Positions 3,351 through 24,859 of a DNA stretch of 44,098 nt are shown here, one piece after another. Made by a program: the position numbers and the translations under genes. The notes beneath the pieces are model-generated. The model saw only the letters and a program-made list of their open reading frames with translations, did not search any database and was not told where the DNA came from. Source of the DNA: a virus (lineage: Duplodnaviria; Heunggongvirae; Uroviricota; Caudoviricetes). Location of the stretch: IMG/VR virus record IMGVR_UViG_2585427657_000002. One strand, given 5' to 3'. Every line of letters begins with the position of its first letter. Position 1 is the first letter of the stretch.

Positions 3351-4103
3351 TTATGCTGCAAGTCTCTTAACCCAAGTCTCTCTTTTGGAGAATGGTAGAA
3401 CTTGGCTTGATTCATGGAAGAGTAAGGAGAGTTGTTGCATTTGATCACCAATTGCTTCGCTGTCTATAACAACAAATCTGTTGTTATACTCCTCACTTGA
3501 AGCTTTAAGATCAATTAGTTTCCCAAGCAATGAGTAAGCACTATTCCAGCTTCCTCCGTGTTTCACGCTTGATGTAAAAACGTATTTAGGTATGTCGGTT
3601 TTTATTGTTACAGGGACGGTAATTTGATGTCCACTCAAGCCATATACGTTTTCACGAAGAGAAAGTGCGTCTCTAAGCTCTGTGTGATATAGATAATCAA
3701 TAACCATACTTTCAAACTTTTCAGCTTGAACTGGCTGATACCAGTCTAACGACAAAGTTGATGCGAGTATACCAGCTCTAATTATGTTCGATGTAATCGC
3801 ACCGACATCCTTTTCTGTTGCCCAAGCAATGATTTCTCCTCGAGCATTGAGTTCTGCGCCTTCTTTAAGCAGTAATTGTCGTATCTCATCAAGTCGTTTT
3901 TTGGTAAGCGAGATCCCTCTTGCCTCCATATTCATTAAGGCATCGCATCTGTCACTAACTAAATACCTACCATTGACTTCACGGATAAAGGCACCGACAT
4001 GCTCTCCATCATCACAGTAAGTGAATGGACTGATAATTCTCAAGGTCTTGCCTATTGGATGGCATTCGAAACCTAGTTGTGAGATCACTGTTGAGCACAT
4101 CAT
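3351..4103 (-). CDS. Hypothetical protein (250 aa), distal gene of cI-linked two-gene operon
   Basis: ATG ATG start overlaps the stop of the upstream 185-aa gene by 4 nt; no transmembrane segment or motif I can assign; followed by terminator. Confidence 0.7.
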   Translation of the reverse strand: MMCSTVISQLGFECHPIGKTLRIISPFTYCDDGEHVGAFIREVNGRYLVSDRCDALMNMEARGISLTKKRLDEIRQLLLKEGAELNARGEIIAWATEKDVGAITSNIIRAGILASTLSLDWYQPVQAEKFESMVIDYLYHTELRDALSLRENVYGLSGHQITVPVTIKTDIPKYVFTSSVKHGGSWNSAYSLLGKLIDLKASSEEYNNRFVVIDSEAIGDQMQQLSLLFHESSQVLPFSKRETWVKRLAA

Positions 4104-4657
4104 ATTCCAAACCCCATTTGCCCCGACTCATCTTCAAGCGGTAAAGGTATTCTCCCAGAGTAAGTTATGTTCAGATGTTTACAGAAGTAATTCCAATACC
4201 CTACCAGGTCATCTGGGTTTATGTCATCTTCGATTGGAAACGCTATTCTATCACTATAGTATCCAGCTTCTTCATAGTATACATGGTAGTGAGCACCGTA
4301 AATGATATCTTGGTACTTCGGATGATCGACCTTGTAACTATTCGTGTGTTTGTCAAAGTGATAGGTATCTACCGCGAAAACCCTCTTGTTATGATAGAAA
4401 GCAATAATATTTATTTTAGGGTAAGAAATCGGGTCATCAGGTTCTGAATCCTGATCTGGTTTCCATTTCAGTTCAAACTTTAGCCCTTGTATAGGTATAC
4501 AATCCTCATCCAAGGGGATGATATGGGCTTGTAGCCACATATCAGAGCGACTTGGTTTCTGTTTCCATTTAACGCCAGAAAAGTTAACTATTTTTTTACA
4601 ATAAAGTACTTTATCAACTTCTACTTGGCTTGGCTGATAATCATCTATTTTTGCCAA
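4100..4657 (-). CDS. Hypothetical acidic Tyr/Asp-rich protein (185 aa), proximal gene of cI-linked operon
   Basis: ORF begins at a TTG codon 40 nt downstream of the cI stop (in-frame stop two codons upstream, so no longer extension is possible); only alternative start is an ATG at codon 40. Confidence 0.6.
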   Translation of the reverse strand: MAKIDDYQPSQVEVDKVLYCKKIVNFSGVKWKQKPSRSDMWLQAHIIPLDEDCIPIQGLKFELKWKPDQDSEPDDPISYPKINIIAFYHNKRVFAVDTYHFDKHTNSYKVDHPKYQDIIYGAHYHVYYEEAGYYSDRIAFPIEDDINPDDLVGYWNYFCKHLNITYSGRIPLPLEDESGQMGFGI

Positions 4658-8070: not shown

Positions 8071-8108
8071 AGGCCTGCAGGTCAGGTAATCGCAGGCCTT
8101 TTTATTTG
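8071..8108 (+). terminator. Intrinsic terminator (tR2 position)
   Basis: Hairpin AGGCCTGC...GCAGGCCT followed by TTTTTATTT between ren and ninB. Confidence 0.6.
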
Positions 8109-8123: not shown

Positions 8124-8564
8124 ATGAAAAAACTAACCTTTGAAATTCGATCTCCGGCACATCAGCAAAACGCTATTCACGCAGTACAGCAAATCCTTCC
8201 AGACCCAACCAAACCAATCGTAGTAACCATTCAGGAACGCAACCGCAGCTTAGACCAAAACAGGAAGCTATGGGCCTGCTTAGGTGACGTCTCTCGTCAG
8301 GTTGAATGGCATGGTCGCTGGCTGGATGCAGAAAGCTGGAAGTGTGTGTTTACCGCAGCATTAAAGCAGCAGGATGTTGTTCCTAACCTTGCCGGGAATG
8401 GCTTTGTGGTAATAGGCCAGTCAACCAGCAGGATGCGTGTAAGCGAATTTGCGGAGCTATTAGAGCTTATACAGGCATTCGGTACAGAGCGTGGCGTTAA
8501 GTGGTCAGACGAAGCGCGACTGGCTCTCGAATGGAAAGCGCGATGGGGAGATCGGGCTGCATGA
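8124..8564 (+). CDS. ninB: NinB (Orf recombination mediator)
   Basis: Starts MKKLTFEIRSPAHQQNAIHAVQQILPDPTKPIVVTIQERNRSLDQNRKLWACLGDVSRQVEWHGRWLD... Confidence 0.9.
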   Translation: MKKLTFEIRSPAHQQNAIHAVQQILPDPTKPIVVTIQERNRSLDQNRKLWACLGDVSRQVEWHGRWLDAESWKCVFTAALKQQDVVPNLAGNGFVVIGQSTSRMRVSEFAELLELIQAFGTERGVKWSDEARLALEWKARWGDRAA

Positions 8565-9088
8565 CTATCAAATCAAATACGCCAGCACACGACAAGGACT
8601 GCTGGCAAACGCCGCTTTGGCTTTTTGATGCACTGGATATTGAGTTTGGATTCTGGCTGGATTCGGCAGCGAGCGACAAAAATGCTCTGTGCGCTCACTG
8701 GCTAACTGAGGACGACGACGCGCTCAATTCTGAGTGGGTAAGCCACGGTGCAATCTGGAATAACCCACCGTACAGCAATATCAGGCCGTGGGTGGAAAAA
8801 GCCGCTGAGCAGTGTATACAACAGCGACAGACGGTAGTGATGCTTGTGCCAGAGGATATGTCTGTCGGATGGTTCAGCAAGGCTCTGGAGAGTGTTGACG
8901 AAGTTCGTATTATCACTGATGGACGGATTAATTTTATCGAACCATCGACAGGGCTGGAGAAGAAGGGAAACAGCAAAGGCTCCATGCTGCTGATTTGGCG
9001 ACCGTTCATCAGTCCTCGACGGATGTTTACTACCGTATCCAAAGCGGCATTGATGGCGATCGGGCAGGGCGTCAGGAGGGCTGCATGA
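8561..9088 (+). CDS. Phage N6-adenine DNA methyltransferase (Dam-like)
   Basis: 175 aa with DxxCWQTPxWLF and NPPY motifs ([13 protein letters not shown]); ATGA overlap with ninB stop; sits where lambda carries ninC. Confidence 0.8.
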
Positions 9089-9261
9089 GACGACAGCGAC
9101 GAAGCATCACCGACATAATCTGCGAAAACTGCAAATACCTTCCAACGAAACGCTCCAGAAATAAACGCAAGCTAATCCCAAAAGAATCTGACGTAAAAAC
9201 CTTCAATTACACAGCCCACCTGTGGGATATCCGGTGGCTAAGATATCGTGCGAGGAAATGA
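9085..9261 (+). CDS. ninE: NinE
   Basis: 58 aa, [58 protein letters not shown]; ATGA overlap with upstream gene. Confidence 0.8.
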
Positions 9262-9605: not shown

Positions 9606-9792
9606 CCCATCTCAATCCCTTCAATACCTGAAAGAAAGCATAGAGCGGGCTTCAATGTGCACAGAGTGGATTCTATCTAGGTTTAGCGCATACAGAAGAT
9701 TGCCGGTAAAGGGCATGCCAAGCAAGTCGATGCTGCATATGCAAAAGAATGCGCGCTGGAAGGTATGGCGAGAACACAGGTTATGTGGCTGA
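9598..9792 (+). CDS. NinF-like small protein
   Basis: N-terminus [10 protein letters not shown] resembles lambda NinF as recalled; the rest diverges. Confidence 0.35.
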
Positions 9793-9811
9793 AAGAGGGG
9801 GTTATTAAGGC

Positions 9812-10174
9812 GTGAATACCTACAGCATCACATTACCCTGGCCTCCGAGCAATAATCGCTATTACCGCCATAATCGCGGGCGCACGCACGTCAGCGCAGA
9901 GGGGCAGGCATACCGCGATAACGTCGCCCGAATCATTAAAAACGCAATGCTGGATATCGGCCTGGCTATGCCTGTGAAAATCCGCATTGAGTGCCACATG
10001 CCGGATCGCCGTCGCCGTGACCTGGATAATCTGCAAAAAGCCGCTTTTGACGCACTCACTAAAGCAGGTTTCTGGCTGGATGATGCTCAGGTCGTTGATT
10101 ACCGCGTTGTGAAGATGCCTGTTACCAAAGGTGGGAGGCTGGAACTGACCATCACCGAAATGGGGAATGAATGA
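9812..10174 (+). CDS. rusA: RusA Holliday-junction resolvase
   Basis: 120 aa from a GTG start, [46 protein letters not shown]...; catalytic Asp-rich core ([25 protein letters not shown]). Confidence 0.9.
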
Positions 10175-10968: not shown

Positions 10969-12051
10969 TTAGAACTGATAAACCAGACCTACAGCGACGA
11001 TGTCGTCGGTATCAATACCAGCTGTTTTGGTAAACTTACTATCGTCAATTAAGTTGATTTTGTAATCAACAAAAGTGGACATGTTTTTATTAAAGTAGTA
11101 AGTAGCACCGACATCGACATACTTGACTAAGTCTCGGTCACCATGAACACCAAGGTCTTTACCTTTTGACTGAAGGTAAGCAACAGATGGACGCAGACCG
11201 AAGTCAAACTGATATTGTGCTACTGCTTCAAAGTTTTGTGCTTTGTTTGCAATATGGTTATTACCAAAAACGGTCATATTCTGAGTTTCAGAATATGTGG
11301 TAGCCAGATAGATATTGTTCGCATCATATTTCAGGCCTGCAGCCCATACTTCCGCATTTTTGCCGGAGGCATTGAATTTGCTCTTACCATAGGCGACCTG
11401 ACCGTCAGTGCGATCTGATTTAGCATAGGTTGCACCCACGCCGAATCCTTCATACTCATAAGTAGTGGAGAAACCGAAACCATCACCATTGGCTTCAGTT
11501 ACGTCAGTGCGGTCATTTTTACCCTGATACTGAGCAGCAAAGTTCAGGCCATCGACCAGACCAAAGAAGTCGTTGTTACGATAAGTTGCAACACCAGTAG
11601 TGCGACCAGTCATGAACACATCTGTTTGGGTCCAGGTATCACCACCGAATTCTGGCAGAACGTCAGTCCACGCACCGATGTCGTATGCTACACCGTAGTT
11701 ACGGCCGTAATCGATTGAGCCGTAATCACCAAATTTCAGGCCTGCAAATGCAAGACGGGTTTTGTCTTTGGAAGAACCTTGAGATTCAGCACGGTTGCCT
11801 TTGAATTCATATTCCCACTGACCGAAACCAGTCAGTTGATCGTTGATTTGGGTTTCACCTTTGAAGCCAAGACGGGCATAAGTAGTATCACCATCATCTG
11901 CATCATTAGAGGAGAAGTAGTGCTTGGCATTAACTTTCCCGTATAGATCCAGCTTGTTACTGTCTTTATTATAAATTTCAGCTGCCTGAGCAGACATCGC
12001 CATCAGTACTGATGCAGCTACAGCAGAAATTGCCACTGTTAATTTTTTCAT
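10969..12051 (-). CDS. nmpC: Outer-membrane general porin, phage-encoded OmpC-family (NmpC/Lc type)
   Basis: Signal peptide [23 protein letters not shown] then AEIYNKD...; C-terminal ...VAVGLVYQF; opposite orientation to phage late genes. Start taken as ATG 12051, not the longer ORF-track start. Confidence 0.9.
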
Positions 12052-12477
12052 TGTACGCCCTTTTTTTGAACTTTTATTAAAAAATGATGTCACTGCGCGA
12101 TAAATATTCATCTAATCAATGTGATTATTTCAAGATGTAAGTTTTAGTTTCTCATTTAATTTGTGAAGTAGATCTCTATTTTTATCTGAACCTTTTCTAT
12201 CTAATCCTATTCATGGCTCTTGTCTGAACAAAAATAAATCTATTAGCTAATTTATATTAATGGCACTTATTTATAAGTGCTCTATAATTCTTTAGCTTAA
12301 TTTAAACAAACTAAAAATAACATCGGAAATTATTAACTGGTTATTTGTTGAAGTTTTCTTATGCATTTGTGGTGGTGTTTTGAACACTCGGTGGCATTCT
12401 CACAAATATCATTTAGTAGTTTACGTACGTAAAAAATTGGTTATGCTGTTAAGAGTGGTTACTTCGTCACACAGCTT

Positions 12478-12510
12478 AAACCCGCCGTCGAGCGGGTTTT
12501 TCCATTTTTT
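12478..12510 (+). terminator. Intrinsic terminator upstream of the lysis cassette (candidate tR')
   Basis: Hairpin CCCGC-CGTCGA-GCGGG followed by TTTTTCCATTTTTT, about 130 bp before the holin start. Confidence 0.55.
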
Positions 12511-12639
12511 GAGTCTCGATATTAGCTGATAACCCAATACCTGAGTTATTCACTGACTCCGAATCTGTTACGTTTCTGCCTTTATTGCGATACGTAGTAT
12601 CCCCTTAATTTACACCCGCTTTGTCTGCGAGGTGGGGTT

Positions 12640-12855
12640 ATGAAATCCATGGATAAGTTAACAACGGGTGTCGCCTATGGTACCTCAGCAGGTAGTGCCG
12701 GGTACTGGTTTTTACAGTTGCTCGATAAAGTCACGCCCTCACAGTGGGCGGCAATAGGTGTGCTGGGTAGCCTGGTATTTGGCCTGCTGACGTACCTGAC
12801 AAACCTTTATTTCAAGATTAAAGAAGATAAGCGCAAGGCTGCGAGAGGTGAATAA
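12640..12855 (+). CDS. S: Holin, phage-21 pinholin type
   Basis: 71 aa, [71 protein letters not shown]; two TM segments, dual-start motif MKSM. Confidence 0.9.
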
Positions 12856-13352
12856 TGCCTCCATCATTACGAAAAGCCGTTGCTGCTGCTATTGGTGGCG
12901 GAGCAATTGCTATAGCATCAGTGTTAATCACTGGCCCAAGTGGTAACGATGGTCTGGAAGGTGTCAGCTACATACCATACAAAGATATTGTTGGTGTATG
13001 GACTGTATGTCACGGGCATACAGGAAAAGACATCATGCTCGGTAAAACGTATACCAAAGCAGAATGCAAAGCCCTCCTGAATAAAGACCTTGCCACGGTC
13101 GCCAGACAAATTAACCCGTACATCAAAGTCGATATACCGGAAACAATGCGCGGCGCTCTTTACTCATTCGTTTACAACGTGGGTGCTGGCAATTTCAGAA
13201 CATCGACGCTTCTTCGCAAAATAAACCAGGGCGATATCAAAGGCGCATGTGATCAGCTACGTCGCTGGACATATGCTGGCGGTAAGCAATGGAAAGGTCT
13301 CATGACTCGTCGTGAGATTGAGCGTGAAATCTGTTTGTGGGGTCAGCAATGA
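12855..13352 (+). CDS. R: SAR endolysin (lysozyme with signal-anchor-release N-terminus)
   Basis: 165 aa; N-terminal weakly hydrophobic SAR segment [20 protein letters not shown] followed by lysozyme domain; overlaps holin stop. Confidence 0.9.
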
Positions 13353-13810
13353 ACAGAGTAACCGCGATTATCTCCGCTCTGGTTATCTGCATCATCGTCT
13401 GCCTGTCATGGGCTGTTAATCATTACCGTGATAACGCCATTACCTACAAAGCCCAGCGCGACAAAAATGCCAGAGAACTGACGCTGGCGAACGCGGCAAT
13501 TACTGACATACAGATGCGTCAGCGTGATGTTGCTGCGCTCGATGCAAAATACACGAAGGAGTTAGCTGATGCGAAAGCTGAAAATGATGCTCTGCGTGAT
13601 GATGTTGCCGCTGGTCGTCGTCGGTTGCACATCAAAGCAGTCTGTCAGTCAGTGCGTGAAGCCACCACCGCCTCCGGCGTGGATAATGCAGCCTCCCCCC
13701 GACTGGCAGACACCGCTGAACGGGATTATTTCACCCTCAGAGAGAGGCTGATCACTATGCAAAAACAACTGGAAGGAACCCAGAAGTATATTAATGAGCA
13801 GTGCAGATAG
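13349..13810 (+). CDS. Rz: Rz i-spanin
   Basis: 153 aa, [38 protein letters not shown]...; N-terminal TM then coiled-coil; ATGA overlap with R. Confidence 0.9.
13569..13751 (+). CDS. Rz1: Rz1 o-spanin lipoprotein, embedded in the +1 frame of Rz
   Basis: [20 protein letters not shown]... lipobox, proline-rich mature part; entirely nested within Rz. Confidence 0.85.
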
Positions 13811-13841
13811 AGCTGCCCATATCGATGGGCAACTCATGCAA

Positions 13842-14135
13842 TTATTGTGAGCAATACACACGCGCTTCCAGCGGAGTATAAATGCCTAAAGTAATAAAAC
13901 CGAGCAATCCATTTACGAATGTTTGCTGGGTTTCTGTTTTAACAACATTTTCTGCACCACCACAAATTTTTGCTGCATCGACAGTTTTCTTCTGCCCAAT
14001 TCCCGAAACGAAGAAATGATGGGTGATGGTTTCCTTTGGTGTTACTGCTGTAGGTTTGTTTCCAACAGTAAACGTCTGTTGAGCACATCCTGTAATAAGC
14101 ATTGCCAGAGCGGCAGAAAACAACATTTTTTTCAT
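13842..14135 (-). CDS. bor: Bor lipoprotein (serum-resistance moron)
   Basis: 97 aa from MKKMLFSAALAMLITGCAQQTFTV... (lipobox LITGC). Confidence 0.9.
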   Translation of the reverse strand: MKKMLFSAALAMLITGCAQQTFTVGNKPTAVTPKETITHHFFVSGIGQKKTVDAAKICGGAENVVKTETQQTFVNGLLGFITLGIYTPLEARVYCSQ

Positions 14136-14615
14136 CTTATTATCCTGCATTGTTAAAAACGGCAGAATCCTATGTGACAACAATTAAACGATAGTTAAAT
14201 GGATTGATGAAAATTAAAACTACACAGGTGGGCTCAGACTATTGGAGGAAGTTGGGGACACTCAGAATCCTGTGGAATGAAATAAACCGGTCTATCCGTC
14301 CATTACCCTTTTAGCTGCGCTGTATCGTCGCCGTATTCCCGCATTAACCATGACCGTAGCCCGACGGGGAATTCCTTCTGCGTGAGTGTGCGGGAATAAT
14401 TAAAAACGATGCACACCGGGTTTTTACCGCGTTAATGATTCGCGGGTTTATCCCGGTGCGATGGTGGAAGAAACAGGAAGCTGTATTACAGAAAGTGCTA
14501 CTACTGTATCCCGATGCGATGTATGTAATGTGAGTCAGATAATGGCACAGGATGTGGTGATGTGGCAGTCTGGAACACAGGATATATTGTCAGAATAAGA
14601 CCCGTAGGAATAAAA

Positions 14616-14942
14616 ATGAAAAGACGCCTTTTACTACTTTTTCTGTTATCTGTCCTGGCAGTGGGATGCTCGCAGCAAAAAGCTGATGAGCCCCGGCAAT
14701 TAGTGACGGTGTATCCACGATATCCGGAATATGCTGCAGCAAATTATATCAAGGGGCTGGTTGAGGTTAAGTTCGATATTGGTGCTGATGGGACTGTGAC
14801 ACGGATCGTTTTTCTCCGCTCAGAGCCTCATAATTTGTTTCGTGATGAAGTGGTGAAGGCCATGGCGAAATGGCGATTTGAAAAGAATCGCCCCTGTCAG
14901 GGAGTGAAGAGACAATTTATCTTTACGCCGTCACGTCCTTGA
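14616..14942 (+). CDS. Lipoprotein with TonB C-terminal-like domain (moron)
   Basis: MKRRLLLLFLLSVLAVGCSQQ signal/lipobox, then VYPRYPEYAAANYIKGLVEVKFDIGADGTVTRIVFLRSEPHNLFRDEVVKAMAKWRFE, which matches the TonB_C pattern (YP..A...G.V.V.F.I..DG.V..I.......F...V..A...WR). Confidence 0.7.
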   Translation: MKRRLLLLFLLSVLAVGCSQQKADEPRQLVTVYPRYPEYAAANYIKGLVEVKFDIGADGTVTRIVFLRSEPHNLFRDEVVKAMAKWRFEKNRPCQGVKRQFIFTPSRP

Positions 14943-15064
14943 TGCTTCCAGGTAGAGAGGGGCTGGAAGCAGGAGAAAAATGAAAGAGCCAGCGGTTATA
15001 TTTTTGTCATGGCTGACGAGGAATGATGGAAGAAGGCGTTGTATGCCACACAACGCCTCACTGT

Positions 15065-15418
15065 TCATTTCTTCTTTTTCTCTGGTGGAACCCGATGAAT
15101 AAGAGTTGCACTGGTTTCCGATGAGATGGCGATATACTCGGGCAAAGTATGCTGGCAGTTTTCCAACTGGTCAAAAATACCTGCTCTCGTCTGTTGCAAT
15201 GCCTGCAGCATGCGGCGGCAATGCGCCTTGCTTTTACTAACCATCTTTCCTTCCTCTATCAGTCGCTGCGTGAACTCATCATGGAATACCAGGTAAATGC
15301 GGATGTTATCGGTTTTGGCTACGCAGCATAGTACAAAACGGACAGGTGCATCCCGGGACGGGGGAGGCGTCACATGTCCCTGTGATGGTTGTTCCGGGTA
15401 ATGTACTGTGTGGGGCAT
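15065..15418 (-). CDS. Hypothetical ORF (117 aa), coding status uncertain
   Basis: Open frame only; overlaps the small secretory ORF 15306..15557 and a + strand 60-aa ORF; identical copy at 19418..19771. Confidence 0.25.
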   Translation of the reverse strand: MPHTVHYPEQPSQGHVTPPPSRDAPVRFVLCCVAKTDNIRIYLVFHDEFTQRLIEEGKMVSKSKAHCRRMLQALQQTRAGIFDQLENCQHTLPEYIAISSETSATLIHRVPPEKKKK

Positions 15419-15557
15419 AAAAATGTCCGATAATTTTACTTTCTACCGCAGTTAGTTGATTCGTTGGTCCTGGTAGCACATTGGGCGAGGATTTAAATGC
15501 CAGGCAACTGAAGGATGATGTCGCAAGGGAGATAGCGAGAATATTTCTGATTTTCAT
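15306..15557 (-). CDS. Small predicted secreted Cys-rich protein (83 aa)
   Basis: MKIRNILAISLATSSFSCLA-FKSS signal peptide; mature part has four Cys (C..C.C..C near the C-terminus); identical copy at 19659..19910. Confidence 0.3.
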   Translation of the reverse strand: MKIRNILAISLATSSFSCLAFKSSPNVLPGPTNQLTAVESKIIGHFYAPHSTLPGTTITGTCDASPVPGCTCPFCTMLRSQNR

Positions 15558-15705
15558 TTGATGATGCCTCTGTGTGAAATGACGGTAAACGACGCACTTG
15601 TGCCGGCACATAATAGCAAGCACCATAATAGATCAGATTCGATTCTTGCTGTAAGTGATAATTATTCTCGTTTTCGGGTCCTTTCCGTCGATCCAACAGG
15701 TTACG

Positions 15706-15717
15706 GGGCGGCGACCT
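15706..15717 (+). other. cos: cosN cohesive-end site GGGCGGCGACCT (copy 1)
   Basis: ...ATCCAACAGGTTACG|GGGCGGCGACCT|CGCGG... matches the lambda right-end/left-end junction as recalled; cosB-like inverted GTCCGACATGAAAG / CATGTCGGGC elements lie between it and Nu1. Confidence 0.85.
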
Positions 15718-15893
15718 CGCGGTTTTTCACTATTTATGAAAATTTTTCAGGGAAAATCGTGTCGGTACTTCTCGAATATAACTTTTTGTTTTTTTTAATA
15801 TTGCATCCGTAAAGGTCCGACATGAAAGTGTCCGAAAATGCCTTTTTCTGGCGTTTTCATGTCGGGCCTTGTATTTGATAATGGGTTGTTTTC

Positions 15894-16158
15894 ATGAAGG
15901 TTAATAAAAAGAGGCTTGCCGAAATTTTCAACGTGGACCCGCGGACGATTGAACGCTGGCAGTCTCAGGGACTCCCTTGCGCCTCCAAAGGTAGTAAGGG
16001 CATTGAATCTGTATTTGATACTGCCATGGCAATTCAGTGGTATGCGCAGAGGGAAACTGATATCGAAAACGAAAAGCTCCGCAAAGAACTGGACGATTTG
16101 CGTGCGGCAGCGGAGTCAGATTTACAACCCGGCACCATTGACTATGAACGCTACCGGC
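15894..16158 (+). pseudogene. nu1: Terminase small subunit Nu1, 5' copy truncated after codon ~88 by a rearrangement junction
   Basis: [33 protein letters not shown]...TIDYERYR then sequence switches to the reverse complement of the porin upstream region. Confidence 0.7.
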
Positions 16159-16323
16159 ACATCTTGAAATAATCACATTGATTAGATGAATATTTATCGC
16201 GCAGTGACATCATTTTTTAATAAAAGTTCAAAAAAAGGGCGTACAATGAAAAAATTAACAGTGGCAATTTCTGCTGTAGCTGCATCAGTACTGATGGCGA
16301 TGTCTGCTCAGGCAGCTGAAATT
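16159..16323. repeat. Fold-back arm: reverse complement of 11974..12138 forming a perfect palindrome with 16327..16491
   Basis: 16159..16323 reads as the exact reverse complement of the porin 5' end and upstream region; symmetry centre at about 16325 (GCTGAAATT-ATA-AATTTCAGC). Confidence 0.85.
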
Positions 16324-16830
16324 ATAAATTTCAGCTGCCTGAGCAGACATCGCCATCAGTACTGATGCAGCTACAGCAGAAATTGCCACTGTTAATTTTT
16401 TCATTGTACGCCCTTTTTTTGAACTTTTATTAAAAAATGATGTCACTGCGCGATAAATATTCATCTAATCAATGTGATTATTTCAAGATGTAAGTTTTAG
16501 TTTCTCATTTAATTTGTGAAGTAGATCTCTATTTTTATCTGAACCTTTTCTATCTAATCCTATTCATGGCTCTTGTCTGAACAAAAATAAATCTATTAGC
16601 TAATTTATATTAATGGCACTTATTTATAAGTGCTCTATAATTCTTTAGCTTAATTTAAACAAACTAAAAATAACATCGGAAATTATTAACTGGTTATTTG
16701 TTGAAGTTTTCTTATGCATTTGTGGTGGTGTTTTGAACACTCGGTGGCATTCTCACAAATATCATTTAGTAGTTTACGTACGTAAAAAATTGGTTATGCT
16801 GTTAAGAGTGGTTACTTCGTCACACAGCTT

Positions 16831-16863
16831 AAACCCGCCGTCGAGCGGGTTTTTCCATTTTTT
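16831..16863 (+). terminator. Duplicate of terminator 12478..12510
   Basis: Identical sequence at offset +4353. Confidence 0.5.
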
Positions 16864-16992
16864 GAGTCTCGATATTAGCTGATAACCCAATACCTGAGTT
16901 ATTCACTGACTCCGAATCTGTTACGTTTCTGCCTTTATTGCGATACGTAGTATCCCCTTAATTTACACCCGCTTTGTCTGCGAGGTGGGGTT

Positions 16993-17208
16993 ATGAAATC
17001 CATGGATAAGTTAACAACGGGTGTCGCCTATGGTACCTCAGCAGGTAGTGCCGGGTACTGGTTTTTACAGTTGCTCGATAAAGTCACGCCCTCACAGTGG
17101 GCGGCAATAGGTGTGCTGGGTAGCCTGGTATTTGGCCTGCTGACGTACCTGACAAACCTTTATTTCAAGATTAAAGAAGATAAGCGCAAGGCTGCGAGAG
17201 GTGAATAA
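16993..17208 (+). CDS. S: Holin (duplicate copy)
   Basis: Identical to 12640..12855. Confidence 0.85.
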
Positions 17209-17705
17209 TGCCTCCATCATTACGAAAAGCCGTTGCTGCTGCTATTGGTGGCGGAGCAATTGCTATAGCATCAGTGTTAATCACTGGCCCAAGTGGTAAC
17301 GATGGTCTGGAAGGTGTCAGCTACATACCATACAAAGATATTGTTGGTGTATGGACTGTATGTCACGGGCATACAGGAAAAGACATCATGCTCGGTAAAA
17401 CGTATACCAAAGCAGAATGCAAAGCCCTCCTGAATAAAGACCTTGCCACGGTCGCCAGACAAATTAACCCGTACATCAAAGTCGATATACCGGAAACAAT
17501 GCGCGGCGCTCTTTACTCATTCGTTTACAACGTGGGTGCTGGCAATTTCAGAACATCGACGCTTCTTCGCAAAATAAACCAGGGCGATATCAAAGGCGCA
17601 TGTGATCAGCTACGTCGCTGGACATATGCTGGCGGTAAGCAATGGAAAGGTCTCATGACTCGTCGTGAGATTGAGCGTGAAATCTGTTTGTGGGGTCAGC
17701 AATGA
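17208..17705 (+). CDS. R: SAR endolysin (duplicate copy)
   Basis: Identical to 12855..13352. Confidence 0.85.
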
Positions 17706-18163
17706 ACAGAGTAACCGCGATTATCTCCGCTCTGGTTATCTGCATCATCGTCTGCCTGTCATGGGCTGTTAATCATTACCGTGATAACGCCATTACCTAC
17801 AAAGCCCAGCGCGACAAAAATGCCAGAGAACTGACGCTGGCGAACGCGGCAATTACTGACATACAGATGCGTCAGCGTGATGTTGCTGCGCTCGATGCAA
17901 AATACACGAAGGAGTTAGCTGATGCGAAAGCTGAAAATGATGCTCTGCGTGATGATGTTGCCGCTGGTCGTCGTCGGTTGCACATCAAAGCAGTCTGTCA
18001 GTCAGTGCGTGAAGCCACCACCGCCTCCGGCGTGGATAATGCAGCCTCCCCCCGACTGGCAGACACCGCTGAACGGGATTATTTCACCCTCAGAGAGAGG
18101 CTGATCACTATGCAAAAACAACTGGAAGGAACCCAGAAGTATATTAATGAGCAGTGCAGATAG
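17702..18163 (+). CDS. Rz: Rz i-spanin (duplicate copy)
   Basis: Identical to 13349..13810. Confidence 0.85.
17922..18104 (+). CDS. Rz1: Rz1 o-spanin (duplicate copy)
   Basis: Identical to 13569..13751. Confidence 0.8.
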
Positions 18164-18194
18164 AGCTGCCCATATCGATGGGCAACTCATGCAA

Positions 18195-18488
18195 TTATTG
18201 TGAGCAATACACACGCGCTTCCAGCGGAGTATAAATGCCTAAAGTAATAAAACCGAGCAATCCATTTACGAATGTTTGCTGGGTTTCTGTTTTAACAACA
18301 TTTTCTGCACCACCACAAATTTTTGCTGCATCGACAGTTTTCTTCTGCCCAATTCCCGAAACGAAGAAATGATGGGTGATGGTTTCCTTTGGTGTTACTG
18401 CTGTAGGTTTGTTTCCAACAGTAAACGTCTGTTGAGCACATCCTGTAATAAGCATTGCCAGAGCGGCAGAAAACAACATTTTTTTCAT
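18195..18488 (-). CDS. bor: Bor lipoprotein (duplicate copy)
   Basis: Identical to 13842..14135. Confidence 0.85.
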   Translation of the reverse strand: MKKMLFSAALAMLITGCAQQTFTVGNKPTAVTPKETITHHFFVSGIGQKKTVDAAKICGGAENVVKTETQQTFVNGLLGFITLGIYTPLEARVYCSQ

Positions 18489-18968
18489 CTTATTATCCTG
18501 CATTGTTAAAAACGGCAGAATCCTATGTGACAACAATTAAACGATAGTTAAATGGATTGATGAAAATTAAAACTACACAGGTGGGCTCAGACTATTGGAG
18601 GAAGTTGGGGACACTCAGAATCCTGTGGAATGAAATAAACCGGTCTATCCGTCCATTACCCTTTTAGCTGCGCTGTATCGTCGCCGTATTCCCGCATTAA
18701 CCATGACCGTAGCCCGACGGGGAATTCCTTCTGCGTGAGTGTGCGGGAATAATTAAAAACGATGCACACCGGGTTTTTACCGCGTTAATGATTCGCGGGT
18801 TTATCCCGGTGCGATGGTGGAAGAAACAGGAAGCTGTATTACAGAAAGTGCTACTACTGTATCCCGATGCGATGTATGTAATGTGAGTCAGATAATGGCA
18901 CAGGATGTGGTGATGTGGCAGTCTGGAACACAGGATATATTGTCAGAATAAGACCCGTAGGAATAAAA

Positions 18969-19295
18969 ATGAAAAGACGCCTTTTACTACTTTTTCTGTT
19001 ATCTGTCCTGGCAGTGGGATGCTCGCAGCAAAAAGCTGATGAGCCCCGGCAATTAGTGACGGTGTATCCACGATATCCGGAATATGCTGCAGCAAATTAT
19101 ATCAAGGGGCTGGTTGAGGTTAAGTTCGATATTGGTGCTGATGGGACTGTGACACGGATCGTTTTTCTCCGCTCAGAGCCTCATAATTTGTTTCGTGATG
19201 AAGTGGTGAAGGCCATGGCGAAATGGCGATTTGAAAAGAATCGCCCCTGTCAGGGAGTGAAGAGACAATTTATCTTTACGCCGTCACGTCCTTGA
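18969..19295 (+). CDS. TonB-C-like lipoprotein (duplicate copy)
   Basis: Identical to 14616..14942. Confidence 0.65.
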   Translation: MKRRLLLLFLLSVLAVGCSQQKADEPRQLVTVYPRYPEYAAANYIKGLVEVKFDIGADGTVTRIVFLRSEPHNLFRDEVVKAMAKWRFEKNRPCQGVKRQFIFTPSRP

Positions 19296-20058
19296 TGCTT
19301 CCAGGTAGAGAGGGGCTGGAAGCAGGAGAAAAATGAAAGAGCCAGCGGTTATATTTTTGTCATGGCTGACGAGGAATGATGGAAGAAGGCGTTGTATGCC
19401 ACACAACGCCTCACTGTTCATTTCTTCTTTTTCTCTGGTGGAACCCGATGAATAAGAGTTGCACTGGTTTCCGATGAGATGGCGATATACTCGGGCAAAG
19501 TATGCTGGCAGTTTTCCAACTGGTCAAAAATACCTGCTCTCGTCTGTTGCAATGCCTGCAGCATGCGGCGGCAATGCGCCTTGCTTTTACTAACCATCTT
19601 TCCTTCCTCTATCAGTCGCTGCGTGAACTCATCATGGAATACCAGGTAAATGCGGATGTTATCGGTTTTGGCTACGCAGCATAGTACAAAACGGACAGGT
19701 GCATCCCGGGACGGGGGAGGCGTCACATGTCCCTGTGATGGTTGTTCCGGGTAATGTACTGTGTGGGGCATAAAAATGTCCGATAATTTTACTTTCTACC
19801 GCAGTTAGTTGATTCGTTGGTCCTGGTAGCACATTGGGCGAGGATTTAAATGCCAGGCAACTGAAGGATGATGTCGCAAGGGAGATAGCGAGAATATTTC
19901 TGATTTTCATTTGATGATGCCTCTGTGTGAAATGACGGTAAACGACGCACTTGTGCCGGCACATAATAGCAAGCACCATAATAGATCAGATTCGATTCTT
20001 GCTGTAAGTGATAATTATTCTCGTTTTCGGGTCCTTTCCGTCGATCCAACAGGTTACG

Positions 20059-20070
20059 GGGCGGCGACCT
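20059..20070 (+). other. cos: cosN (copy 2)
   Basis: Identical to 15706..15717 with the same flanks. Confidence 0.8.
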
Positions 20071-20246
20071 CGCGGTTTTTCACTATTTATGAAAATTTTT
20101 CAGGGAAAATCGTGTCGGTACTTCTCGAATATAACTTTTTGTTTTTTTTAATATTGCATCCGTAAAGGTCCGACATGAAAGTGTCCGAAAATGCCTTTTT
20201 CTGGCGTTTTCATGTCGGGCCTTGTATTTGATAATGGGTTGTTTTC

Positions 20247-20795
20247 ATGAAGGTTAATAAAAAGAGGCTTGCCGAAATTTTCAACGTGGACCCGCGGACG
20301 ATTGAACGCTGGCAGTCTCAGGGACTCCCTTGCGCCTCCAAAGGTAGTAAGGGCATTGAATCTGTATTTGATACTGCCATGGCAATTCAGTGGTATGCGC
20401 AGAGGGAAACTGATATCGAAAACGAAAAGCTCCGCAAAGAACTGGACGATTTGCGTGCGGCAGCGGAGTCAGATTTACAACCCGGCACCATTGACTATGA
20501 ACGCTACCGGCTCACAAAAGCGCAGGCAGATGCGCAGGAACTGAAAAATGCCCGTGAAGACGGAGTAGTGCTGGAAACTGAACTGTTTACCTTCATTCTG
20601 CAACGTGTGGCACAGGAGATTTCGGGGATACTTGTGCGTGTGCCGTTGACATTACAGCGTAAATATCCGGACATTTCACCATCACACCTTGATGTGGTGA
20701 AAACTGAAATCGCGAAAGCCTCCAATGTTGCAGCTAAGGCCGGTGAAAACGTGGGCGGGTGGATCGATGATTTCAGACGCGCAGAAGGCAGCTAA
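20247..20795 (+). CDS. nu1: Terminase small subunit Nu1 (full length, in duplicated copy B)
   Basis: 182 aa; ...[54 protein letters not shown]...; winged-helix N-terminus. Confidence 0.85.
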
Positions 20796-21358
20796 TGCAG
20801 CCGGTGCGATAGCTACAGGGCTTTTATCTCTCATTATTCCTGTTCCACTGACGACAGTTCAGTGGGCCAATAAACATTATTACCTTCCTAAAGAGTCGTC
20901 TTATACCCCGGGGCGATGGGAAACACTGCCGTTTCAGGTTGGCATCATGAACTGTATGGGCAACGATCTGATTCGCACGGTTAACCTGATTAAATCTGCC
21001 CGTGTTGGTTATACAAAGATGTTGCTGGGAGTGGAGGCTTATTTTATTGAGCATAAATCACGCAACAGCCTTCTTTTTCAGCCCACGGACTCAGCTGCTG
21101 AAGATTTTATGAAATCTCATGTTGAGCCAACGATAAGGGATGTTCCTGCATTGCTGGAGCTGGCTCCATGGTTCGGAAGAAAACACCGCGATAATACGCT
21201 CACCCTGAAGCGTTTTTCCTCCGGTGTGGGGTTCTGGTGTCTGGGTGGTGCGGCAGCAAAAAACTACCGTGAAAAATCCGTGGATGTGGTCTGTTATGAC
21301 GAGCTTTCCTCGTTCGAACCGGATGTTGAAAAAGAGGGTTCGCCAACCCTGCTGGGGG
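20725..21358 (+). pseudogene. A: Terminase large subunit A, 5' fragment ending at a rearrangement junction
   Basis: Identical to the first ~210 codons of 22889..24859, then joins sequence equivalent to 15426 onward (...PTLLG then GTCCGATAATTTTAC...). Confidence 0.7.
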
Positions 21359-21638
21359 TCCGATAATTTTACTTTCTACCGCAGTTAGTTGATTCGTTGG
21401 TCCTGGTAGCACATTGGGCGAGGATTTAAATGCCAGGCAACTGAAGGATGATGTCGCAAGGGAGATAGCGAGAATATTTCTGATTTTCATTTGATGATGC
21501 CTCTGTGTGAAATGACGGTAAACGACGCACTTGTGCCGGCACATAATAGCAAGCACCATAATAGATCAGATTCGATTCTTGCTGTAAGTGATAATTATTC
21601 TCGTTTTCGGGTCCTTTCCGTCGATCCAACAGGTTACG

Positions 21639-21650
21639 GGGCGGCGACCT
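21639..21650 (+). other. cos: cosN (copy 3)
   Basis: Identical 12-mer and flanks. Confidence 0.8.
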
Positions 21651-21826
21651 CGCGGTTTTTCACTATTTATGAAAATTTTTCAGGGAAAATCGTGTCGGTA
21701 CTTCTCGAATATAACTTTTTGTTTTTTTTAATATTGCATCCGTAAAGGTCCGACATGAAAGTGTCCGAAAATGCCTTTTTCTGGCGTTTTCATGTCGGGC
21801 CTTGTATTTGATAATGGGTTGTTTTC

Positions 21827-22092
21827 ATGAAGGTTAATAAAAAGAGGCTTGCCGAAATTTTCAACGTGGACCCGCGGACGATTGAACGCTGGCAGTCTCA
21901 GGGACTCCCTTGCGCCTCCAAAGGTAGTAAGGGCATTGAATCTGTATTTGATACTGCCATGGCAATTCAGTGGTATGCGCAGAGGGAAACTGATATCGAA
22001 AACGAAAAGCTCCGCAAAGAACTGGACGATTTGCGTGCGGCAGCGGAGTCAGATTTACAACCCGGCACCATTGACTATGAACGCTACCGGCT
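21827..22092 (+). pseudogene. nu1: Nu1 5' fragment (third copy), truncated after codon ~88
   Basis: ...TIDYERYRL then joins sequence equivalent to 15576 onward. Confidence 0.7.
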
Positions 22093-22222
22093 GAAATGAC
22101 GGTAAACGACGCACTTGTGCCGGCACATAATAGCAAGCACCATAATAGATCAGATTCGATTCTTGCTGTAAGTGATAATTATTCTCGTTTTCGGGTCCTT
22201 TCCGTCGATCCAACAGGTTACG

Positions 22223-22234
22223 GGGCGGCGACCT
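22223..22234 (+). other. cos: cosN (copy 4, the one contiguous with the intact packaging/head operon)
   Basis: Identical 12-mer and flanks, about 190 bp upstream of the intact Nu1 at 22411. Confidence 0.85.
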
Positions 22235-22410
22235 CGCGGTTTTTCACTATTTATGAAAATTTTTCAGGGAAAATCGTGTCGGTACTTCTCGAATATAACT
22301 TTTTGTTTTTTTTAATATTGCATCCGTAAAGGTCCGACATGAAAGTGTCCGAAAATGCCTTTTTCTGGCGTTTTCATGTCGGGCCTTGTATTTGATAATG
22401 GGTTGTTTTC

Positions 22411-22959
22411 ATGAAGGTTAATAAAAAGAGGCTTGCCGAAATTTTCAACGTGGACCCGCGGACGATTGAACGCTGGCAGTCTCAGGGACTCCCTTGCGCC
22501 TCCAAAGGTAGTAAGGGCATTGAATCTGTATTTGATACTGCCATGGCAATTCAGTGGTATGCGCAGAGGGAAACTGATATCGAAAACGAAAAGCTCCGCA
22601 AAGAACTGGACGATTTGCGTGCGGCAGCGGAGTCAGATTTACAACCCGGCACCATTGACTATGAACGCTACCGGCTCACAAAAGCGCAGGCAGATGCGCA
22701 GGAACTGAAAAATGCCCGTGAAGACGGAGTAGTGCTGGAAACTGAACTGTTTACCTTCATTCTGCAACGTGTGGCACAGGAGATTTCGGGGATACTTGTG
22801 CGTGTGCCGTTGACATTACAGCGTAAATATCCGGACATTTCACCATCACACCTTGATGTGGTGAAAACTGAAATCGCGAAAGCCTCCAATGTTGCAGCTA
22901 AGGCCGGTGAAAACGTGGGCGGGTGGATCGATGATTTCAGACGCGCAGAAGGCAGCTAA
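22411..22959 (+). CDS. nu1: Terminase small subunit Nu1
   Basis: 182 aa, identical to 20247..20795; followed by overlapping terminase A. Confidence 0.9.
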
Positions 22960-24859
22960 TGCAGCCGGTGCGATAGCTACAGGGCTTTTATCTCTCATTA
23001 TTCCTGTTCCACTGACGACAGTTCAGTGGGCCAATAAACATTATTACCTTCCTAAAGAGTCGTCTTATACCCCGGGGCGATGGGAAACACTGCCGTTTCA
23101 GGTTGGCATCATGAACTGTATGGGCAACGATCTGATTCGCACGGTTAACCTGATTAAATCTGCCCGTGTTGGTTATACAAAGATGTTGCTGGGAGTGGAG
23201 GCTTATTTTATTGAGCATAAATCACGCAACAGCCTTCTTTTTCAGCCCACGGACTCAGCTGCTGAAGATTTTATGAAATCTCATGTTGAGCCAACGATAA
23301 GGGATGTTCCTGCATTGCTGGAGCTGGCTCCATGGTTCGGAAGAAAACACCGCGATAATACGCTCACCCTGAAGCGTTTTTCCTCCGGTGTGGGGTTCTG
23401 GTGTCTGGGTGGTGCGGCAGCAAAAAACTACCGTGAAAAATCCGTGGATGTGGTCTGTTATGACGAGCTTTCCTCGTTCGAACCGGATGTTGAAAAAGAG
23501 GGTTCGCCAACCCTGCTGGGGGATAAACGTATTGAGGGCTCTGTATGGCCAAAATCCATTCGCGGCTCGACGCCTAAAATCAAAGGCTCCTGCCAGATCG
23601 AAAAAGCCGCTAACGAGTCGGCACACTTCATGCGTTTTTATGTGCCCTGTCCGCACTGTGGGGAGGAGCAGTATCTGAAATTTGGCGATGATGCCTCGCC
23701 TTTCGGTCTTAAGTGGGAGAAGAATAAGCCAGAAAGTGTTTTCTACCTTTGTGAGCATCATGGCTGTGTGATCCATCAGTCTGAGCTTGACCAGAGTAAC
23801 GGGCGGTGGATCTGTGAAAACACGGGCATGTGGACCCGTGACGGCCTGATGTTTTTCAGCGCCCGGGGTGATGAAATTCCGCCGCCGCGCTCCATCACTT
23901 TCCATATCTGGACGGCGTACAGTCCGTTCACCACCTGGGTACAGATTGTCTATGACTGGCTGGATGCACTGAAAGATCCCAACGGCCTGAAAACCTTTGT
24001 GAACACCACGCTGGGCGAGACCTGGGAAGAGGCTGTGGGCGAAAAACTCGATCACCAGGTGCTGATGGATAAGGTTGTGCGTTACACGGCGGCGGTGCCT
24101 GCCCGGGTGGTTTATCTGACGGCGGGCATTGACTCGCAGCGAAACCGTTTTGAGATGTATGTCTGGGGATGGGCTCCGGGAGAGGAAGCCTTTCTGGTGG
24201 ATAAAATCATCATTATGGGGCGTCCCGATGAGGAAGAGACGCTGTTACGTGTGGATGCGGCGATCAACAAAAAATACCGCCATGCAGACGGAACCGAAAT
24301 GACCATTTCCCGTGTCTGCTGGGACATCGGGGGGATCGATGGCGAAATCGTTTATCAGAGGTCAAAAAAACACGGTGTTTTCCGGGTGCTGCCGGTAAAA
24401 GGCGCGTCTGTCTATGGCAAGCCGGTGATCACCATGCCGAAAACCCGCAATCAGCGGGGCGTTTATCTGTGTGAAGTGGGGACGGACACCGCAAAAGAAA
24501 TTCTCTATGCCCGTATGAAAGCCGAGCCCACGCCTGCGGATGAAGCCACGTCGTATGCCATCCGTTTTCCTGATGATCCGGAGATTTTTTCGCAGACAGA
24601 GGCGCAGCAACTGGTCGCGGAAGAGCTTGTGGAGAAGTGGGAAAAAGGAAAGATGCGTCTGCTGTGGGATAACAAAAAGCGGCGTAACGAAGCGCTGGAC
24701 TGCCTGGTGTATGCCTACGCGGCATTACGTGTGTCCGTGCAACGCTGGCAGCTTGATCTGGCTGTACTGGCAAAATCCCGGGAAGAAGAGACGACCCGGC
24801 CAACCCTTAAAGAACTGGCAGCGAAGCTGTCCGGAGGAGTGAATGGTTACAGTCGCTGA
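22889..24859 (+). CDS. A: Terminase large subunit A
   Basis: ...[32 protein letters not shown]...[14 protein letters not shown]...[19 protein letters not shown]... lambda gpA pattern; start could alternatively be the ATG at 22931 (MISDAQ...). Confidence 0.9.

Follow-up and report, generated by a model that had tools for sequence, protein, structure and literature searches.

What is the small gene that sits between ninB and ninE in a lambda-like prophage, and what would a phage do with it? A first-pass annotation had called its product a Dam-like N6-adenine methyltransferase that stands in place of ninC. We analysed the gene within a stretch of 44,098 nucleotides (the window), the whole of which corresponds to the prophage adjoining icd in Escherichia coli Nissle 1917. 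Our answer, to which we give a probability of roughly 0.9, is that the gene encodes an intact orphan phage DNA (adenine-N6)-methyltransferase. It is an allele of M.EcoVT2Dam that would methylate GATC, be made as a delayed-early product and top up the methylation of phage DNA. Family, intact motifs, near identity to M.EcoVT2Dam and orphan context were computed here; the GATC target comes from the literature, and timing and role we infer.

The coding sequence of this N6-adenine DNA methyltransferase lies at 8561-9088 on the plus strand (175 amino acids plus stop), as supported by translation, profiles and identity. Translation reproduces exactly the coordinates of the 175-residue reading frame that had been annotated, with 175 codons between the ATG at 8561 and the TGA at 9086-9088. 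The start codon (8561-8563, context gcATGAct) shares an ATGA with the stop codon of ninB (TGA, 8562-8564). At the other end, the methyltransferase stop shares an ATGA with the start codon of ninE (ATG, 9085-9087). The upstream neighbour is the ninB/orf recombination mediator gene (8124-8564, plus strand; PF05772 at 1.1e-54). The downstream neighbour is ninE (9085-9261, plus strand; PF05322 at 1.8e-41), followed by the NinX and RusA genes. The earlier description of a gene coupled between ninB and ninE thus holds, with overlaps on both sides, and translation is probably coupled to both neighbours. The overlaps are real but generic, and not peculiar to the methyltransferase gene. The same type of overlap occurs within the window at O/P, P/ren and rusA/ylcG, and the nin regions of all lambdoid phages are described as tightly packed in this ATGA fashion (PMC8022706).

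The start at ATG 8561 is backed by 39 homologues that begin at the identical position in our alignment. Three other candidate features were rejected. An extension of the frame to a GTG at 8501 and an antisense reading frame at 8695-9042 are mechanical open reading frames that we found to be unsupported. A promoter-like site within the coding sequence (8886-8913) is no more than chance would produce: 5 such sites were found and 4.8 are expected.

The protein is a member of the PF05869/TIGR01712 family by profile, motif and size. It matches the PF05869 (Dam) profile at 3.7e-65 (219.1 bits, cut-off 28.1, profile positions 1-167 of 169). The match to the NCBIfam equivalog TIGR01712, 'phage N-6-adenine-methyltransferase', reaches 1.2e-79 (265.6 bits, cut-off 97.05, positions 1-165 of 165). 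PHROG 111 (phrog_111) is matched at 8.3e-88, and the best PADLOC match is 'orphan methyltransferase' (oMTase). PF05869 is the sole Pfam family matched at E-values up to 0.01. A search of 5.8 billion protein sequences returned 273 relatives at an E-value of 1e-5 or better, and all 120 of the relatives listed among these carry PF05869. Homologues are 173-185 amino acids long.

Conservation across the family points to an intact enzyme. We aligned 40 mostly full-length members with 59-98% identity; 43 columns of this alignment are invariant, and the window protein has all 43. They include T17, P18, F31, L33, D34, A36 and the catalytic motif IV, N68-P69-P70-Y71 (8762-8773, plus strand), which is invariant in 40/40 homologues and follows a predicted strand at residues 64-68. 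The NPPY motif noticed in the first-pass annotation is hence present at residues 68-71, and the lesion in the catalytic motif that would have overturned that annotation is excluded. The N-terminal DxxCWQTPxWLF motif is found as described at residues 11-22 (8591-8626, plus strand). Within it all 40 homologues share T17, P18 and F22, and 90% or more of them have D13, W15 and Q16. The segment F31-W-L-D34-S-A-A37 (8651-8671, plus strand) forms the predicted strand beta-1, with F31, L33, D34 and A36 invariant. It is presumed to be AdoMet-binding motif I, judging from the motif order of the gamma class. Every residue of the WxTP motif and of the F-x-LD-x-A strand is either invariant or at least 90% conserved.

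More distant members of PF05869 occur in phages of Vibrio, Klebsiella, Lactococcus and Gordonia. These distant PF05869/TIGR01712 members differ from the window protein in that identity is only 26-48% and most are without a tested specificity. We take the Dam enzyme of Haemophilus phage HP1 to belong to the same family. The likeness lies in small single-domain enzymes with the PF05869 profile, carried by temperate phages. HP1 is described as encoding a phage Dam methyltransferase (PMC7556043).

The closest characterised enzyme is almost the same protein. The window protein and orf32 of phage VT2-Sakai (NP_050531) are identical at 174 of 175 residues, the single difference being D51 here and A51 there, in a variable acidic loop. 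The VT2-Sakai enzyme, M.EcoVT2Dam, was reportedly cloned and found to be GATC-specific by Radlinska and Bujnicki in 2001, a study known to us from citation. A later paper lists M.EcoVT2Dam of prophage VT2-Sa as a GATC-targeting orphan methyltransferase (PMC6602927, citing Radlinska & Bujnicki 2001, PMID 11720311). GATC methylation by the window protein is thus reported second-hand, for a one-residue variant, and would carry over by sequence similarity. The two genes also share length, position between ninB and ninE, ATGA overlaps and membership in the Pfam and NCBIfam families. The surrounding prophages differ: VT2-Sakai is an Stx2 phage, whereas the prophage in the window is lambda-like and non-Stx, its O, P and ren being of the lambda type and its late region of the DLP12 type.

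The same protein is widespread. It is reported at 98-100% identity in HK97, 933W-type phages, Min27 and others (PMC3342100), and phi24B carries an identical gene. The window protein is identical to WP_000153286.1, annotated in E. coli Nissle 1917. At the nucleotide level, all 528 bases of the gene are the same in Nissle 1917, ATCC 11775, NU14 and other strains, and of 5426 complete E. coli genomes, 1565 (about 29%) have a copy at 95% identity or more. All 15 genome records listed annotate it as 'phage N-6-adenine-methyltransferase'. The ninB-dam-ninE-ninX block finds matches in 429 phage records, with 100% identity in Escherichia phages ev207, ev017 and PhiR57_1. Hence the methyltransferase is already known and routinely annotated, under the name DNA methyltransferase or phage N-6-adenine methyltransferase in the records listed, and a one-residue variant has been characterised. 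A tblastn hit in Shigella phage SfII had the appearance of a Dam-NinC fusion. We rejected this candidate, as the SfII protein, 217 amino acids long, is an ordinary PF05869 enzyme (9.7e-46). The SfII gene is named 'dam' (NC_021857; 2462-3115 of the stretch examined), and its product name, 'phosphoadenosine phosphosulfate reductase', is apparently a mistake in the annotation.

Near identity to an active enzyme also bears on whether the gene is an inactive remnant in a mosaic, possibly defective prophage. One could suspect this because the Nissle 1917 locus has an integrase truncated by an IS3-family element and a DUF1364 pseudogene nearby. Against it, the reading frame is full length and keeps every invariant residue; the protein differs from an active enzyme by a single position of a variable acidic loop (D51 instead of A51), and its gene is identical to those of the functional phages ev207 and ev017. 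We give an inactive remnant next to no credence and keep to an intact enzyme.

To what extent is the enzyme a Dam? A sequence search of the PDB found no relative (the best E-values, 0.31 and 0.69, belong to unrelated proteins), and the fold comparison therefore relied on a predicted model. The AlphaFold2 model, built on the 40-sequence alignment, is a single-domain alpha/beta structure (pLDDT 89.9, pTM 0.87). It places NPPY after the strand at 64-68 and the LD-x-A motif on the strand at 31-36. All 175 amino acids form one compact domain, and the model contains no separate target-recognition domain. The best structural match to the model is PCIF1 (score 10.3), on which Foldseek concurs. M.TaqI (9.5), M.BseCI (9.2), MmeI (8.9), CamA (8.7) and type I HsdM (8.6) follow, ahead of E. 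coli Dam (7.7) and T4 Dam (7.3).

With M.TaqI, M.BseCI, CamA, MmeI, type I HsdM and PCIF1 the protein shares an NPPY/NPPF motif and an AdoMet-binding strand N-terminal to it. In contrast to the window protein, these M.TaqI-type and PCIF1 enzymes are 320-750 amino acids long, have a separate target-recognition domain or subunit, and are only 12-18% identical to it. E. coli Dam and T4 Dam, which belong to the alpha class, resemble the window protein in the reported product (N6-methyladenine in GATC) and in a Rossmann-type AdoMet-dependent core. Our searches for the hallmarks of the host-type Dam family (E. coli Dam, T4 Dam, DpnM) in the protein were negative: it has neither that family's profile, which we take to be PF02086, nor DPPY, nor a recognition domain between the AdoMet and catalytic motifs. 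The model thus portrays the protein as a bare adenine-N6 methyltransferase core, M.TaqI-like but lacking the target-recognition domain. Since its fold resembles M.TaqI-type enzymes and PCIF1 more than host Dam, the protein would be a Dam by activity and not by descent from host Dam. The earlier label 'Dam-like' therefore stands for the reported GATC activity; it does not stand for the family, which is PF05869/TIGR01712 and not that of host Dam and T4 Dam. The broader assignment to phage Dam-family N6-adenine methyltransferases is borne out by the agreement of profiles, catalytic motif, near identity to M.EcoVT2Dam and predicted fold.

The predicted fold raises three further readings, all concerned with what the enzyme acts on. 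First, the substrate could be RNA or something else other than DNA. The sole pointer is that the closest solved fold, PCIF1, is an mRNA cap adenosine methyltransferase, and we think this reading has hardly any chance of being right.

Second, the specificity could be relaxed or extend beyond GATC, which would make the enzyme a broad anti-restriction modifier of phage DNA. A protein of 175 amino acids with one compact domain in the model and no separate recognition domain would fit, and some phage adenine methyltransferases are indeed non-specific (Hia5/Hin1523; PMC3299994). Hia5-type enzymes fall into another class, marked by DPPY and FxGxG. We rejected a link to Hia5/Hin1523 on account of these motifs and because their description makes no mention of the PF05869 family (PMC3299994). 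The enzyme that is identical at 174 of 175 residues is reported to be GATC-specific, and lysogens of STEC with two copies of the gene are described as showing only GATC, CTGCAG and one motif assigned to a different enzyme, although the gene may be silent there (PMC6602927). Relaxed specificity is therefore very unlikely in our view.

Third, GATC may be read in a way that has not been described, for example by an oligomer or by a hairpin at 121-146, or there may be additional substrates or a counter-defence role that were not reported in 2001. Such possibilities arise because the protein has no target-recognition domain and no solved relative, and because its fold is closest to that of PCIF1. 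We regard them as improbable. Methylation of GATC remains our reading of the target. On family and literature grounds, the enzyme would transfer a methyl group from AdoMet to the exocyclic N6 of the GATC adenine, with the flipped base bound by NPPY.

How did the gene come to lie between ninB and ninE? The window aligns to lambda at 97% identity from O through ninB, up to window position 8564, which corresponds to lambda 41084, the last base of ninB. Identity returns at window position 9092 (lambda 42097), seven bases into ninE. Because homology to lambda breaks at the ninB stop and returns in ninE, the module replaces ninC plus ninD, with junctions at gene boundaries. The earlier claim that the methyltransferase stands in place of ninC is right about the slot and incomplete about its extent, as the breakpoints of the lambda alignment show that ninD is replaced too. 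This is typical lambdoid mosaicism, a mosaic replacement rather than divergence. The methyltransferase shares with lambda NinC (PAPS-reductase-like) and NinD the slot between ninB and ninE and the operon. Kinship with lambda NinC was rejected: BLASTP gives an E-value of 9.4, and NinC matches PF01507, which the window protein does not. Further along the nin region, at about 9720-9815 between ninX and rusA, the Nissle locus annotates a DUF1364 pseudogene whose N-terminal part is missing, the scar of an old deletion or recombination event.

The neighbourhood makes the methyltransferase an orphan. Profile searches identify its neighbours as NinB, NinE, NinX and RusA, and the RefSeq annotation of the identical Nissle 1917 locus holds no endonuclease besides the Holliday-junction resolvase RusA. 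We inspected relatives with 66-80% identity in prophages of three other genera. The Pectobacterium relative lies between a DUF1367 gene and ninF-ninG-Q, the Providencia relative between the replication genes and Q, and the Yersinia relative at the end of an early gene block that opens with a YqaJ exonuclease gene. A restriction gene is found beside none of the three, and neither is ninB. As no restriction enzyme lies alongside, the enzyme is an orphan. In the window, Nissle 1917, Pectobacterium, Yersinia and Providencia the gene is always among the early genes of temperate prophages. Because the relatives lie among early genes and none of them by ninB, we regard the methyltransferase as an orphan early-gene module, whose ninB neighbourhood reflects synteny and not functional pairing.

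When would the enzyme be made? The gene belongs to the early-right (pR) operon of the prophage, downstream of a tR2-like terminator. In the spacer between ren and ninB, within the block that is 97% identical to lambda, a hairpin with a U-run is found at 8071-8107 on the plus strand (GGCCUGC...GCAGGCC, then UUUUUAUUU). It presumably occupies the position of the lambda terminator tR2. The hairpin folds at -17.2 kcal/mol, with a z-score of only -1.7, modestly better than shuffled sequences, and a scan for consensus terminators did not call it. Since the scan missed the hairpin and the z-score is weak, the expected timing rests on homology to lambda and on general knowledge. Known terminators lie in the nin region, and N has to overcome them (Cheng et al. 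1995, cited in PMC8022706). From the position in the pR operon past a tR2-like hairpin we expect delayed-early expression: the gene would be nearly silent in the lysogen and active once N antitermination sets in.

Alternatively, the enzyme could act mainly as a regulator in the lysogen, where low expression would add to host Dam activity so as to keep lysogeny stable or to adjust prophage or host promoters. A screen of lysogen cultures for expressed genes picked up the identical phi24B gene, the authors of that screen suggested such a role, and stable lysogeny of 933W reportedly needs host Dam (Murphy et al. 2008, as cited in PMC3342100). Hence strict silence in the prophage is not a given. 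Yet the gene lies downstream of pR and the tR2-like hairpin, so cI repression is expected in the lysogen, and lysogen cultures always contain spontaneously induced cells. The transcript level of the phi24B gene is described as changing significantly on prophage induction (PMC3342100). We found no direct experiment on a regulatory role in the literature, and lambda and many relatives manage without the gene. A mainly regulatory role is unlikely in our judgement, and we retain delayed-early expression.

What would a delayed-early GATC methylase achieve? Virion DNA of lambda and P22 is described as under-methylated at Dam sites, since replication outpaces host Dam (PMC8022706). Most probably, the phage enzyme would top up GATC methylation on phage DNA that replicates too fast for the scarce host Dam to methylate in full. 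Genomes would thus be packaged in a fully methylated state, and so shielded from restriction enzymes that are blocked by GATC methylation. GATC methylation made by the phage could also avoid nicking by MutH at hemimethylated sites.

The base composition of the window does not decide the matter. GATC is under-represented, with 122 sites observed and 171-197 expected (ratio 0.62). GGCC has a similar ratio (0.64) and CTAG a far more extreme one (0.17). Scarcity of GATC is unexpected if methylation made the site harmless, but the pattern is general in lambda-like phages; it neither supports nor refutes the proposed role.

The rest of the window holds several features of its own. At its left end (1-1664), the matching Nissle annotation is a truncated integrase pseudogene interrupted by a frameshifted ISEc52 (IS3-family) transposase; with its integrase interrupted, the prophage may be unable to excise. 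At the end of the IS3-family element, 1662-2018 holds a 173-base tandem duplication (1662-1834 and 1846-2018, 100% identical), and about 355 bases there are without a counterpart in the Nissle 1917 locus. On the minus strand at 3351-4657, two overlapping genes lie by the cI-like repressor, in the slot of lambda rexAB. They encode a 250-aa DUF1828 protein and a 185-aa protein, and the pair matches both components of PDC-M24, a candidate defence system in PADLOC (B: 4.7e-10; A: 4.8e-4). It is possible that this is a prophage-encoded defence pair.

An OmpC/NmpC-type porin gene lies on the minus strand at 10969-12111, between Q and the lysis genes, and iss lies downstream of the lysis genes, encoding the serum-survival lipoprotein Iss according to the annotation of the identical Nissle locus. 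Both look like host-fitness cargo in the late region. Direct repeats of 100% identity cover the region 11968-22676 and are absent from the otherwise near-identical Nissle 1917 prophage. The segment 11968-16158 recurs at 16321-20511 (offset 4353) and 19928-21358 recurs at 22092-23522, with further copies of 585-735 bases at 21358-22092 and 21508-22092. The repeats span the porin, lysis, iss and small-terminase region, and their appearance suggests either an artefact of assembly or a recent tandem amplification. Exactly at the junction of the two 4.2-kb copies, a 334-base segment (16159-16491) is its own reverse complement at 99.4%, and part of this palindrome matches the Nissle locus inverted. 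Foldback or chimeric reads produce junctions of this kind, and so does inverted duplication.

What does the enzyme mean for its phage? Anti-restriction and control of replication or packaging, the functions suggested for it at the outset, are hypotheses. Since E. coli already has Dam, any benefit of a second GATC methylase is hypothetical. As a discovery the gene carries little weight, and the role of the enzyme for the phage is a modest question that reaches beyond this window. The same is true of the way in which a bare catalytic core would recognise GATC, in a family for which a sequence search finds no experimental structure. Nissle 1917, a probiotic strain, carries the exact allele and would be a convenient test bed.
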